This document shows positions 2,454-29,599 of a stretch of 64,000 nt of DNA, one piece after another. The notes under the pieces are model-generated. The model saw only the letters and a list, made by a program, of their open reading frames with translations, searched no databases and was not told the origin of the DNA. The stretch lies in IMG/VR virus record IMGVR_UViG_3300033075_001021; one strand, written 5' to 3'. The number at the start of each line of letters is the position of its first letter. The first letter of the stretch is position 1. The translations under genes and the position numbers were made by a program. Origin of the DNA: a virus (lineage: Duplodnaviria > Caudoviricetes).

Positions 2454-2484
2454 AAAAAACCCCTCGATTTGTGGTCGAGGGGCT
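2454..2484 (-). terminator. attenuator terminator of tRNA operon 1
   Basis: CCCCTCGA-loop-TCGAGGGG then T run, just before the first tRNA. Confidence 0.85.
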
Positions 2485-2507
2485 CAAATTATGTTTTAAG
2501 ATAAACG

Positions 2508-2594
2508 TTAATTTTGGGCAATACTCGACCTCTGTGACCAATCGGCCTCAGCTGCATCAAAGTTAAACTCAAATATGTTGTTAACGTTTCTCAT
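2508..2594 (-). CDS. leader peptide 1 (MRNVNNIFEFNFDAAEADWSQRSSIAQN)
   Basis: ATG after A-rich leader; F/E/D/A codon run; GGTCGAG complementary to terminator 5' arm. Confidence 0.8.
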   Translation of the reverse strand: MRNVNNIFEFNFDAAEADWSQRSSIAQN

Positions 2595-2624
2595 TGTTTT
2601 TATGTTTGTGGGTTTCCCCGTTAA

Positions 2625-2672
2625 GTAATAAATATATGCAAATATACGAAAGATTTTCGAAAAAGCAAATAT
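2625..2672 (-). promoter_or_regulatory. Bacteroidota-type promoter (TTTG -33, TATATTTG -7) overlapping ATATTTAT motif
   Basis: near-identical block at 29525-29572; similar at 8143-8187 and 39431-39476. Confidence 0.75.
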
Positions 2673-2693
2673 TTTGTAAAGATTTTTTTTTAG

Positions 2694-2765
2694 CACGGGA
2701 AGATGTTAACGAAACACCGTCCTCAAGGCTCAACGCCTTGCGCTCTTCAACTGAGCTATTCCCGT
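2694..2765 (-). ncRNA. atypical tRNA-like RNA (loop CG-TTG-AG, nominal Gln)
   Basis: four paired stems, but G33, no D-loop GG and T-loop TTCGTTA. Confidence 0.65.
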
Positions 2766-2769
2766 AAAT

Positions 2770-3735
2770 TAAGACTGAGTACTTGGTCTTGGGAGAAGGA
2801 ATTTTTCACACAGATTTCTCTGGTAGTACACACCTACATTTCTGTTGGTATCCTCCATACAGACTGATTATAGGTTCAGCAACCACTACGTACTGCTATA
2901 TAGTTTACTCCTTTCACTCTCAGCCCCTTGGAAGGGTGAACAATCTCCCGACTGCTACTGATTAGCTACTTGTTTCAGCTCTCCACATTTCCTTGAGGTA
3001 CTCTGTGGGCCAACATATTGTCTTTCGACGCAGCTGGATAACTGTATTGTCACAGCACGTGCCCAATGCTTTCTCTTTTTTATAATTTGCATTAACAAAG
3101 TTGCAATGCCAAATAGTCATTTAGAAGGTTGTGATTGGGCTCTGAACCGTGCCACCTTTTGAGTAGTTTAGGTTCAAACAACCTCCTGTTTTCAGCCGCC
3201 AAGCTTACTCACTTTACTGAGTCTATCATCCCACCATTTCTGCCAGAGCAGCACCACCTGTTCACGTGGTAGACACAATCAATGAGTAGAAACCCATCGA
3301 TTGTTGGTTCGTCATATGGGATGACAATAACCTTTCATCAATAACTGCTGAAAATTGGCGGTCCTTAGCAGTTAAAGCAACATCAATTTGTCGGTGTTAC
3401 CACCCAAGTCAGGCCGACCAAGCCCGACCCACCCTACTTTCACGTCTGCCCGACGATACTCCATAAGATGGTATAATGCTGTGTTTCGTGTGAACAGACT
3501 TTCATCTGCGCCAAACATTCTTAGGCGATTGTTTGACTTTTCCGACTTATGAATTCATCGGTTATTCTAACGAGGAGAACACCCCCGAACCAAATTAGTA
3601 ACTGGTCAAGCCAGCTTATTCACACGGACCGTGCGTATTTCAACGCTGAAGGTTTTGGATACCCGTGCTTTTGTGTGGCTGTCTTAAGAGTGCCTCTCAT
3701 ACAACAGATTCGCGAATGGCATTTAACCCACACAT
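2770..3735 (-). ncRNA. large structured ncRNA, GOLLD-like
   Basis: ~960 nt GC-enriched, no credible ORF, own TATCTTTG promoter (~3747-3755), next to tRNAs; family assignment from recalled motif resemblance only. Confidence 0.55.
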
Positions 3736-3914
3736 TTGTTTGGATTGCAAAGATACGAATAACTTTTTAATCCACCAAATTTTTTAAGAACTTTTTTTGA
3801 GACATCGGAGTCATTTGGCCTAACTCACCATGTTATTGTAATCGCTCGGTGTCTCAATTAGAATGCAAATATACAACAGATTTTTCAATTTTCCAAATTT
3901 TCTGTCAACTTTTT

Positions 3915-4742
3915 TTAATTAAAGTGATTTTCTAGTGATTCAATCAATTTAATCATATTACACTCATAGAATCCAGCAGAATTGATGTTATTTACTTCGA
4001 CAATCTTTAATTCATCGTCAGCTAAACAAACATCTAATACAAATGCTTCGGCTGGTTGATATTTGTCAACCATGCTTTGTGCAAAGTCAACGAAATAAGA
4101 TTCATCATCGTAATTAGCGTAGATAACTCTATTACCAATCTTATATCTACTAGCTGTAACCACATTTCCACCAACAACCCAGCATCTAACTTCTTGTTGA
4201 ATGTTTTTAAGCGGAGAAACCAAAATTTGAGTTTCTTCTGTAATAACATTAACCGTATCGTGGTCGTTACAAGTTTTTGTGTAATCAGCCCAAGCCGCTT
4301 TAGAAAACACTTGACCAGAAAATACTTTGCTATCTTTTGTTGGTCTAGCAAAGAAAAATTCATTATCAAAAGGTATAGCGTCTGTAAAATTGATTACTTG
4401 ACCATCGCCATTTAACATGTTTTCAAACCCATATTGTGGTGCGTAAACATTGTAGTCATGATTGTCATTCAACATACTGCCTGGTTTCCAACCACGTTTA
4501 GCCGCTGCCGCAGCCATGGCCACGGCACCAAAACAAAAAATGTTTGTTTTATCGGTTTGATAAACCTTAGGGTTAAAATCTGGAATCTTATCAGCTTCTT
4601 CAGAATCATACCATTCATAGATATCACCAGCAAATGGAATATACTTTACAATATCGTATTCAAACTTGAAACGATTCATTGTATCTAAAAGCGTCTGATA
4701 ATGATGCTCTTTAAATAAGTTTTCTTGTATTACGTAAAACAT
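3915..4742 (-). CDS. ATP-grasp domain protein (DUF4343/R2K-like)
   Basis: FFARP..K.FSGQV, EVRCWVV, FVLDV, IVEVN..NSAGFY. Confidence 0.75.
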   Translation of the reverse strand: MFYVIQENLFKEHHYQTLLDTMNRFKFEYDIVKYIPFAGDIYEWYDSEEADKIPDFNPKVYQTDKTNIFCFGAVAMAAAAAKRGWKPGSMLNDNHDYNVYAPQYGFENMLNGDGQVINFTDAIPFDNEFFFARPTKDSKVFSGQVFSKAAWADYTKTCNDHDTVNVITEETQILVSPLKNIQQEVRCWVVGGNVVTASRYKIGNRVIYANYDDESYFVDFAQSMVDKYQPAEAFVLDVCLADDELKIVEVNNINSAGFYECNMIKLIESLENHFN

Positions 4743-4972
4743 TATTTTTTAGCGTTTCGTAGAGATTGATTTTTTTCATGAAAAAAATCCACCCACATTT
4801 TAACAAAAGCTGATGCTTTTTTATTGATATCTTCTTCCGTTCTAGCAGAAAAATAAACATCGATTTCTGGCATATAACATGAGAACATTTCATCACTTTC
4901 TGGGTTATCTGTCATAACCGTAAAGTCAACTGATACTGTTCGTTTTTGATTGTATATTTCGTTTTGTTTCAT
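4742..4972 (-). CDS. hypothetical protein
   Basis: start trimmed to ATG (MKQNEIY) outside the tRNA. Confidence 0.6.
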   Translation of the reverse strand: MKQNEIYNQKRTVSVDFTVMTDNPESDEMFSCYMPEIDVYFSARTEEDINKKASAFVKMWVDFFHEKNQSLRNAKK

Positions 4973-4984
4973 AAAACTGTTTTG

Positions 4985-5073
4985 TGAGGATGGTCGGACT
5001 CGAACCGACACGCTACTATTATTTCGCCCCAGATTCTAAGTCTGGTGTGTGCTGCCAATTTCACCACATCCCC
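4985..5073 (-). tRNA. tRNA-Leu(TAG)
   Basis: CCAGA-CTTAGAA-TCTGG, class II arm. Confidence 0.9.
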
Positions 5074-5076
5074 ATA

Positions 5077-28488: not shown

Positions 28489-28576
28489 CATACCCGTGTG
28501 GGATTCGAACCCACGGACCCCGATTAGGGGCCTCCGATTTCAGGTCGGTGCATTCAGCCTCTCTGCCAACAAGTAT
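28489..28576 (-). tRNA. tRNA-Ser(TGA), atypical
   Basis: CCGA-CCTGAAA-TCGG, class II arm, possible 8-bp acceptor. Confidence 0.7.
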
Positions 28577-28581
28577 ATAAG

Positions 28582-28672
28582 CGGAAGCGGACGGATTCGA
28601 ACCCTCAGACGATATTGCTACCGCCCCACTGTTTTCAAGACAGGGCCCCGCACCAATGGGGTCAGCGCTTCC
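28582..28672 (-). tRNA. tRNA-Ser(TGA)
   Basis: loop CTTGAAA, G73. Confidence 0.88.
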
Positions 28673-28677
28673 AATTG

Positions 28678-28846
28678 CTAATGGGGGAGGACTCGAACGC
28701 TCCACGGTGCGATTCAATAAACAGCAATTTGTGCTAGCTAGCTTGTGGTCAACCCGTTACTGCTTATCTATCTCGTTATCACCACCCCTGAGACAAAGGG
28801 GTATGTCTGCCATTGAGTCTTTTGACTCAGATTTCATCACCCATTA
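28678..28846 (-). ncRNA. oversized tRNA-like RNA (loop TTGTCTC)
   Basis: TAATGGG/CCCATTA acceptor, hairpin inserted in D loop, ~75-nt variable region. Confidence 0.65.
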
Positions 28847-29007
28847 ATTTGGTTTTCAATTCAATCAAAGAACTATAAACTGATTCAAGCCAATCAACGA
28901 TTTCTTTTGCTGAATAGTTGTTGTTTTTATACGCATCTAATTCTTCTTTGGTAATGCGTATTTGTTCATCTAATGTTAATTTTGTTTCGAAATTACTATT
29001 ATTTTAG

Positions 29008-29092
29008 CACGGATGGTTGAAGTCGAATCAACAAGCTACTATTACTTCGCACAGTTTTGGAGACTGCTTACCTCGCCAATGGATGCACCCGT
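29008..29092 (-). tRNA. tRNA-Trp(CCA), long variable region
   Basis: GCAGT-CTCCAAA-ACTGT, G73. Confidence 0.78.
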
Positions 29093-29098
29093 ATTTTG

Positions 29099-29169
29099 CA
29101 CGAACATTCAGATTCGAACTGAAAACTGTAGTTTTGGAGACTATTATGATGCCGTTTCACCATGCTCGT
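29099..29169 (-). tRNA. tRNA-Trp(CCA) with 4-bp anticodon stem
   Basis: ATAGT-CTCCAAA-ACTAC (A27.C43), G73. Confidence 0.88.
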
Positions 29170-29330
29170 GTATATATAAGAACTTTTCCTTTCTCTTTTA
29201 CAAACTTCAGCTCTGTTGAAAGGCCCAGTGCTAAAGCTTTTTGTTGATATTCCTCAACAATCTTGTCAAAATCCCTTTCTAACTCTTTGGGTTTCACCGT
29301 TCCTAGTTTCCTATAAAGTTCATCTGACAT
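29157..29330 (-). CDS. hypothetical protein (57 aa)
   Basis: MSDELYRKLG...; stop lies within the tRNA-Trp 5' end. Confidence 0.5.
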   Translation of the reverse strand: MSDELYRKLGTVKPKELERDFDKIVEEYQQKALALGLSTELKFVKEKGKVLIYTRAW

Positions 29331-29334
29331 AATG

Positions 29335-29366
29335 AAAAAAGCCTCTGGATTTTAGGTCAGAGGCTT
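29335..29366 (-). terminator. attenuator terminator of tRNA operon 3
   Basis: AGCCTCTG-loop-CAGAGGCT then T run. Confidence 0.85.
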
Positions 29367-29395
29367 TATATTGTGAATCGTGATTTGCTGAGTTT

Positions 29396-29494
29396 TTATC
29401 CCCAAGTATCGTCACTATTAAGCATGACCTGTCCGTTTGAATTACTACGTATAATCCAATTAATCGAATTCATATGTCTGTTAATAGTTCTCAT
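29396..29494 (-). CDS. leader peptide 3 (MRTINRHMNSINWIIRSNSNGQVMLNSDDTWG)
   Basis: 17 consecutive R/I/N/H/M/S/W codons; AGGTCA complementary to terminator TGACCT. Confidence 0.8.
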   Translation of the reverse strand: MRTINRHMNSINWIIRSNSNGQVMLNSDDTWG

Positions 29495-29599
29495 TGTTTT
29501 TATGTTTGTGGGTTTTCCCGTTAAGTAATAAATATATGCAAATATACGAAAGATTTTTTAAAAAGCAAATTTTTTATGAACTTTTTTTAAAAAAAATTT

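Follow-up and report, generated by a model that had tools for sequence, protein, structure and literature searches.

The window analysed here is a 64,000-nt stretch of DNA from a virus of the class Caudoviricetes (IMG/VR record IMGVR_UViG_3300033075_001021). It contains 44 transfer RNA (tRNA) genes and one transfer-messenger RNA (tmRNA), called with ARAGORN and all on the minus strand. Three clusters of these tRNA genes are each headed by a short open reading frame (ORF), here called the leader, whose codons name the amino acids of the tRNAs that follow it. The leaders share a promoter, the 22-nt core of which is present in four identical copies in the window (none is expected by chance) and contains the Bacteroidota-type -7 box TAnnTTTG. 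In all three units the order is promoter, A-rich untranslated stretch, ATG-initiated ORF of 26-32 codons, spacer of 24-37 nt, G+C-rich hairpin with a T-run, and tRNAs. An earlier note on this DNA had described this layout, codon runs that match the tRNAs of their own cluster in three disjoint sets, and a leader segment complementary to the 5' arm of the terminator. The analysis confirmed each of these observations, and the features of the three units are as follows, all on the minus strand.

Unit 1, class A (F/E/D/A)
2628..2649, minus: promoter core, 22-nt exact repeat
2594 to 2508, minus: leader ORF, 28 codons and TAA
2541-2573, minus: control run FEFNFDAAEAD, codons 8-18
2524..2530, minus: antiterminator strand GGTCGAG, pairing with CTCGACC (2473-2479) in the terminator 5' arm and loop
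2454..2482, minus: intrinsic terminator, 8-bp G+C-rich stem and T6
763..2448, minus: tRNA operon, Asp, Asp, Phe, Phe, Glu, Glu, Asp, Ala, Ala

Unit 2, class B (L/V/C)
8144..8165, minus: promoter core, 22-nt exact repeat
8122 to 8042, minus: leader ORF, 26 codons and TAA
8072-8101, minus: control run LLLVLCVLVL, codons 8-17
8057..8063, minus: antiterminator strand GACTGGG, pairing with CCCAGTC (8008-8014)
7986..8016, minus: intrinsic terminator, hairpin and T-run
4984..7981, minus: tRNA operon, Cys x2, Val x3, one odd tRNA, Leu x6

Unit 3, class C (R/I/N/H/M/S/W)
29528..29549, minus: promoter core, 22-nt exact repeat
29494 to 29396, minus: leader ORF, 32 codons and TAA
29435-29485, minus: control run NRHMNSINWIIRSNSN, codons 4-20
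29419..29431, minus: antiterminator strand CAGGTCATGCTTA (CAGGTCA...), pairing with AAGC..TGACCT on the 5' side of the terminator
29335..29364, minus: intrinsic terminator, hairpin and T-run
29157..29330, minus: conserved 57-aa ORF between the terminator and tRNA-Trp, with no PHROG match
24568..29169, minus: tRNA operon, Trp, Ser x3, His x2, Ile x2, Met, Asn x3, Met, Arg x4, Ser
24541..24562, minus: terminator closing the operon, directly after tRNA-Ser(GCT)

Fourth copy of the promoter
39433..39454, minus: promoter core, 22-nt exact repeat

The terminator hairpins of the leaders have free energies of -10.6 to -15.1 kcal/mol and are followed by T6; that of unit 1 was also recovered by a generic terminator scan. 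The first tRNAs of units 1 and 2 start at 2448 and 7981, only 4-9 nt after the T-run. This leaves no room for a second promoter, so these tRNAs would be made only by read-through of the terminator.

Leader codons and operon tRNAs

The amino-acid sets of the three leaders do not overlap. Perfect in-set runs of 7, 10 and 17 residues are found in units 1, 2 and 3 respectively, and in unit 1 the set accounts for 10 of the 11 residues of the run. Each leader's in-set run exceeds those of all 385 other ATG-initiated ORFs of 20-45 codons in the window, and the signal is specific to the frame, the other two frames of the same DNA giving runs of at most 3. The anticodons of the operon behind each leader can read 42 of the 45 in-set codons of the three leaders together. 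In unit 1 these are 8 of 11 under strict wobble, the three misses being GCT/GCC Ala codons. All 12 are readable in unit 2, where the Leu codons TTG, CTC, CTT, CTA and TTA are used and the isoacceptors taa, caa, tag and aag are all sampled. All 22 are readable in unit 3, assuming that a tRNA(CAT) acting as Ile2 reads ATA; this leader samples both Arg codon boxes (AGA, CGT) and both Ser boxes (TCG, TCA, AGT). The permutation test proposed in the earlier note was made with eight leader types, from the window and from relatives described below, against their eight tRNA sets. The true assignment was the unique best of 40,320 permutations, scoring 122 against 108 for the next best.

Homologous leaders vary within the runs, and the variation respects the set. 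Nonsynonymous alternatives in the run columns are in-set in 40 of 69 cases, where 28% is expected from the single-nucleotide neighbours of the majority codons (pooled p = 1.2e-7). The in-set alternatives number 16 of 18 in class C, 11 of 16 in class D (a fourth leader class, found in relatives) and 6 of 10 in class A, and include the radical exchanges R/I, H/I and N/I. Outside the runs the in-set fraction is near background. Synonymous alternatives in the runs also exceed expectation (36 against 22.6). Selection thus acts on membership of the operon's amino-acid set.

All 28 distinct homologous units keep the leader ORF open, and the indels that separate homologues are in frame. Ahead of each leader start the sequence is 65-70% A and has no Shine-Dalgarno sequence, which places it at or above the 99th percentile of internal ATGs (in unit 1, positions -20 to -1 are 65% A) and above the 49% mean A content of real gene starts. 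The leader starts therefore have the sequence context of translated genes, and the leaders are presumably translated.

A short motif, AACATAT or GACATAT, was observed at a fixed distance from the start (nt 13-21) in all leader classes (2574-2580, 8102-8108 and 29474-29480 in the window, minus strand), including the class D leaders and the leader of a more distant contig, L073. The motif is kept in different reading frames, which marks it as an element at the nucleotide level. It is possibly a pause site or part of a protector pairing.

Pairing between leader and terminator

Every unit has a segment inside the ORF, at about codons 20-26, that is complementary to the 5' arm of its terminator. 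Measured against dinucleotide shuffles, the duplex of unit 2 has z = -2.5 (p = 0.013) and that of unit 3 is weak by itself (z = -0.85). Over the homologous units, the in-ORF segment pairs better with its own terminator than with the mean of unrelated terminators in 27 of 28 cases (Wilcoxon p = 4e-6).

The two strands also co-vary. The 7-bp helix of class A is 91% paired over five sequences, with compensatory changes in three pairs, and control helices slid along the same sequences are 12-46% paired. In the L002 counterpart of unit 2 a compensatory change gives GGCTGGG opposite CCCAGCC. Class C leaders that have other terminators, found at loci fetched through the 57-aa ORF, have in-ORF changes to match, located at the same codons. 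The window pairs CAGGTCATGCTT with AAGCCTCTGACC, L122 pairs GTCGGG..GCTT with AAGCCCCGAC, and L128 pairs GCTTGAGTCGG with CCGATTCAGAGC. The covariation supports an antiterminator pairing that is predicted to exclude the terminator.

Folding of the alternative structures, another check that the earlier note had proposed, agrees with a switch. Minimum-free-energy folding of the free full-length RNA gives the terminator hairpin in 28 of 28 units and, in 26 of them, pairs the antiterminator segment with upstream ORF sequence. When a ribosome footprint is placed on the codons of the run, the ORF captures the nascent terminator arm at 87% of stall positions. The leader stop codon lies 24-37 nt before the terminator arm in these 28 units. 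The reverse polarity, in which stalling leads to termination, was considered and rejected: a translating ribosome cannot melt the terminator from the stop codon, and a stalled ribosome leaves the antiterminator segment free.

Relatives and gene neighbourhood

An exact search with the 22-mer promoter core found 20 viral contigs in which the core stands ahead of homologous units. In these relatives the three leader classes recur, each ahead of the tRNA set that it has in the window. The earlier note had predicted that the tRNAs lacking canonical copies in the window would sit behind a leader rich in G, K, P, Q, T and Y. Such leaders exist in close relatives: L003, L004, L005, L006, L015, L076 and L114 have leaders of class D (T/Y/Q/P/K/G), followed by Pro, Gln, Tyr, Gly, Thr and Lys tRNAs. 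L076 shares a contig with L011, whose class A leader differs from that of the window at two residues. The four classes, three in the window and class D in relatives, jointly name all 20 amino acids. A class D unit follows the class A unit in L003 and L019, and by this synteny the class D unit of the window's genome probably lies just beyond coordinate 1.

The 57-aa ORF of unit 3 provides a comparison within one family. A search with the single protein found only the nearest relative, and a profile search was used instead, which gave homologues at 26 loci. A leader and a terminator lie upstream at all nine loci where tRNAs come next. In the 17 more distant loci there is no tRNA within 6 kb, and neither leader nor terminator. 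The device therefore goes with the tRNAs and not with the protein gene.

In more distant phages the tRNAs are grouped differently, and the leaders are regrouped likewise, which is the covariation of leader codons with tRNA content that the earlier note had asked relatives to show. L073 is a 287-kb contig in which the run ENTPNNGGGYDVPVY precedes Pro, Asn, Leu, Thr, Gly, Tyr, Glu, Asp, Met and Val tRNAs. A second L073 leader was predicted to be rich in I/F/K/C/W/R/Q/S/H/M and was then found at 4333-4434, with a separate terminator whose arm has a 7-nt complement inside the ORF. A blastn search with unit 1 against cultured phages gave no match; the nearest isolate by DNA ligase is Cellulophaga phage phi17:2, at 52% identity. 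Its first leader, with the run QRLHLQELEQP, precedes Pro, Glu, Gln, His, Leu, Leu and Arg tRNAs, and the gp077 frame, with the run TKTGITVIDKTKGARAY, precedes Ala, Lys, Ile, Gly, Met, Asp, Thr, Val, Arg, Met and Tyr tRNAs. Both are preceded by a repeated promoter and each has a terminator. Three of four blind predictions of composition held, one in L073 and two of three in phi17:2. Judged by these sequence features, the same device is present in a cultured phage of Cellulophaga baltica, and phi4:1 probably carries it too, being nearly identical to phi17:2.

The phi17:2 record annotates gp077 (L152 2143-2262; NC_021798.1 88442-88561) from a TTG that lies inside the repeated promoter; the GTG at L152 2179 is the likely start of the leader. 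The record lacks annotation for the first leader (L152 1219-1287) and for a tRNA-Lys (L152 2479-2551). On NC_021798.1 the two units are located near 87.5 and 88.5 kb.

A search with a shorter promoter core returned mostly chance matches, with tRNAs near only five of the new loci. The 22-mer also has five matches in contigs of bacterial genomes. Four of them are either ordinary promoters ahead of protein genes or chance occurrences, and two of these four are on contigs of Bacteroidales/Bacteroides metagenome-assembled genomes. The fifth, L118, is a phage-like contig that carries a class A unit and is filed under a Methanobacterium metagenome-assembled genome. The promoter type, the A-rich starts that lack a Shine-Dalgarno sequence and the relatives among Cellulophaga phages suggest a host in the Flavobacteriia or elsewhere in the Bacteroidota.

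Genes for tRNA repair and maturation are present in the window, together with an ATP-dependent DNA ligase and with HNH or other homing endonucleases among the tRNA genes and beside the tmRNA:

16428-17495, minus: Rnl2-like RNA ligase
19081-20262, minus: T4 Rnl1-like RNA ligase
21966-22895, minus: AAA_33 kinase-like protein
30784-31992, minus: CCA-adding/poly(A) polymerase-family enzyme
17534-18913: ATP-dependent DNA ligase
1556-1915, minus: HNH endonuclease, within the unit 1 operon
5077-5559, minus: HNH endonuclease, within the unit 2 operon
24983-25471, minus: homing endonuclease, interspersed in the unit 3 operon
26476-27201, minus: homing endonuclease, interspersed in the unit 3 operon
40063-40854, minus: homing endonuclease

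The RNA ligases, the kinase-like protein and the CCA-adding-type enzyme fit a setting of tRNA damage, without proving it. DnaJ is also encoded around the tRNA blocks. An R2K-type ATP-grasp protein (3915-4742, minus strand) has the Leu tRNAs on one side and, on the other, a large GOLLD-like RNA of divergent sequence (2772-3186, minus strand, probably reaching towards 3900). The latter is a full-length match to the Rfam GOLLD family at 74 bits (E = 5e-19), below the gathering score of 150, in an ORF-free stretch directly upstream of a lone tRNA-Gln (2693-2765). A 655-aa ORF with TonB-dependent receptor plug and barrel domains (34048-36015, minus strand) is unusual cargo for a phage.

For eight amino acids ARAGORN calls, in addition to a normal tRNA of 72-77 nt, a longer one of 84-91 nt that shares its anticodon:

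2361-2448, minus: long tRNA-Asp
1386-1473, minus: long tRNA-Glu
7894-7981, minus: long tRNA-Cys
7231-7316, minus: long tRNA-Val
28042-28132, minus: long tRNA-His
27806-27889, minus: long tRNA-Ile
27158-27245, minus: long tRNA-Asn
38981-39066, minus: long tRNA-Met

ARAGORN calls these copies intronless, so the extra length lies in the variable region, as in class II tRNAs. Comparable long copies for Pro, Lys and Thr are found in relatives, and a literature search on long second tRNA copies returned nothing that fits. A tRNA with a CTA anticodon, of the amber suppressor type, is present at 36967-37039 (minus strand). This tRNA suggested a recoding of TAG, for which no evidence was seen in the window, where TAG closes 3 of 42 long ORFs and read-through would add little.

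Attenuation and its alternatives

The layout, the match between codons and tRNAs, its tracking across lineages, the selection on set membership and the alternative pairing with compensatory changes are all computed results. On this basis we consider it likely that the leaders are ribosome-mediated attenuators that open when the run is decoded slowly, so that the tRNAs reading its codons are transcribed. The phage would thus probably make each tRNA set only when ribosomes read its codons slowly. Transcription would initiate at the shared Bacteroidota-type promoter and a ribosome would translate the leader of 26-32 codons. If the run is read fast, the segment at about codons 20-26 would lie under the ribosome or pair back with the 5' part of the ORF. 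With this segment unavailable the terminator hairpin would form, and the polymerase would halt 4-9 nt upstream of the first tRNA in units 1 and 2, and ahead of the 57-aa ORF and tRNA-Trp in unit 3. If a tRNA needed in the run is scarce, uncharged or cleaved, the ribosome would stall in the run and leave the segment free to pair with the emerging 5' arm of the terminator, allowing read-through into the tRNA genes that decode the run. The product would relieve the stall, and each unit would therefore be a closed negative-feedback loop that supplies its tRNA set on demand. We infer that the leaders are translated and that transcription is coupled to translation in the host, as we do the direction and size of the response and its natural trigger. 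Candidate triggers are the cleavage of tRNAs by defence nucleases, host shut-off, a mismatch in codon usage and poor charging.

One possible function, which we put forward tentatively, is a codon-resolved tRNA homeostat that serves as counter-defence. Cleavage or depletion of host tRNAs would be sensed by stalled ribosomes, and the matching set would be transcribed. The trigger may be anticodon nucleases or the phage's own shut-off of the host. Four separately gated operons, the fourth seen in close relatives, would cover all 20 amino acids, and the neighbouring RNA-ligase, kinase and CCA-adding repair genes may act as backup.

Several observations weigh against attenuation, or at least against its simplest form. 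The antiterminator duplexes are singly modest (mean z = -1.6 against dinucleotide shuffles), and in several class C units they are no better than shuffles. A ribosome at the stop codon masks the antiterminator segment in 13 of 28 units, mostly of classes A and B; there is little such masking in classes C and D, where the OFF state must therefore rely on the predicted protector pairing of the 1:2 type. Variable sites in homologous leaders show no significant 3-periodicity (58, 65 and 79 at codon positions 1, 2 and 3, p = 0.18). This agrees with a constraint on residue class and not on residue identity, but classical conservation of a coding sequence is not shown. The pooled p-values are optimistic because related loci are not phylogenetically independent. 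The class A run is impure, containing an Asn although the Asn tRNAs belong to unit 3. In phi17:2, gp078, which precedes Ser, Asn, Trp and Phe tRNAs, was tried as a third leader and rejected, having no compositional match, promoter copy or terminator. Attenuation also presumes a degree of tightness in the coupling of transcription to translation in the host. Lastly, extra tRNA cannot cure a shortage of an amino acid, so the benefit to the phage hinges on the actual trigger.

The fourth copy of the promoter belongs with these points and is an internal contrast to the three leader units. It precedes a leader of about 290 nt (39145-39432, minus strand) and then two tRNA(CAT) genes (38981-39144), and this leader contains neither a codon-run ORF nor a terminator and has no Rfam match. 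The arrangement is conserved in L014 and L018, with the leader conserved in part. The idea that this unit lacks a codon-run leader because its tRNA(CAT) genes encode initiators was not supported, as neither has three G:C pairs in the anticodon stem.

The same hardware may instead report general translation capacity or the state of aminoacylation, as a timer or a growth-rate control of all the phage tRNAs. Each leader samples many codons, for up to 7-10 amino acids, so that any slowdown would open it; one promoter is common to all units, and the classical trp and his attenuators respond to the supply of charged tRNA. Such a sensor would nevertheless have no need for codons and substitutions confined to the operon's own set, and separately gated, disjoint tRNA sets argue for control that is specific to the set; we regard a general sensor as unlikely. 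The lack of significant 3-periodicity and the weakness of single class C duplexes would also suit ORFs that are functional micropeptides or incidental, with a codon match that is not regulatory and a hairpin that is a leaky terminator, an insulator or a processing signal. The class B leader does resemble a hydrophobic helix. We give very little credence to this explanation, which has to account for eight unrelated leader types that each match their own operon (1 of 40,320), for a terminator arm and in-ORF segment that co-vary, and for the absence of the device where tRNAs are absent, at the 57-aa ORF loci. The tolerated in-set R/I and H/I exchanges do not fit a folded or membrane peptide.

The least probable explanation that we considered is antitermination by a protein or an RNA, for example by T-box-like binding of tRNA, in which translation plays no part. 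Leaders that sense tRNA do exist, T-boxes among them, and the fourth promoter unit has a long structured leader with no codon run. An Rfam scan of the whole window at gathering score, however, found only tRNA and tmRNA and no T-box. The signal in the three units is specific to the frame, the ORFs are open in all homologues and have in-frame indels only, and each start is preceded by sequence of the kind that translated genes have.

The earlier note had likened the layout to the trp, his and ilv attenuators, and the architecture has their structural elements, the protector pairing as a prediction, except that the controlled genes are tRNAs. Like ilvGMEDA (Ile/Leu/Val), thr (Thr/Ile), trpL, hisL, pheL and leuL, the phage units have a promoter, a short ORF with control codons, hairpins predicted to be mutually exclusive and genes reached by read-through, and as in the ilv and thr types one leader would sense several amino acids. 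The enterobacterial attenuators gate biosynthetic enzymes, whereas the phage units would gate tRNAs, so that the molecule sensed and the product would be of the same kind. The phage leaders differ further in sampling up to 7-10 amino acids each, in having the antiterminator strand inside the ORF, upstream of the stop codon, and in being borne by a phage. To our knowledge leader-peptide attenuators are little documented in Bacteroidota.

Some synthetase genes have comparable leaders. The pheST synthetase genes of E. coli are controlled by a Phe-rich leader. Leaders with His codons precede hisS paralogues in bacilli (PMC2965389). Here too slow decoding of cognate codons raises the supply of a component of decoding, but what is made is an enzyme that charges the tRNAs of one amino acid, while the phage units would supply whole sets of tRNAs, are multivalent and are found in a virus. 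T-box riboswitches are similar in that a 5' leader chooses between terminator and antiterminator according to the state of a specific tRNA, before genes related to translation. T-boxes bind uncharged tRNA directly and independently of the ribosome, whereas the phage signal is an in-frame codon run with no match to a T-box model. In a full-text literature search we found no description of leader-peptide attenuation of tRNA genes, in cells or in viruses.

The reason for tRNA genes in phages has been a matter of debate for decades, and little is known of their regulation. Phage tRNA sets have been proposed to replace host tRNAs lost to defence nucleases or to host shut-off (PMC10264068). That work gives a reason for a phage to want tRNAs only when those of the host fail, and the window also carries repair genes of the RNA-ligase and kinase types. 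The work concerns features of tRNA sequence that evade nucleases, and not a sensing device that switches tRNA genes on. If attenuation is correct, the supply of phage tRNAs would be regulated by demand, codon set by codon set, through sensor codons that are read by the very tRNAs under their control. Ribosome-mediated attenuation would extend to hosts of the Bacteroidota type, and the tRNA arsenals of phages would be linked to the sensing of tRNA damage. The leaders would also provide small, modular parts for reporting how fast chosen codons are decoded. As the device is found in the cultured phage phi17:2, the idea is directly testable at the bench.

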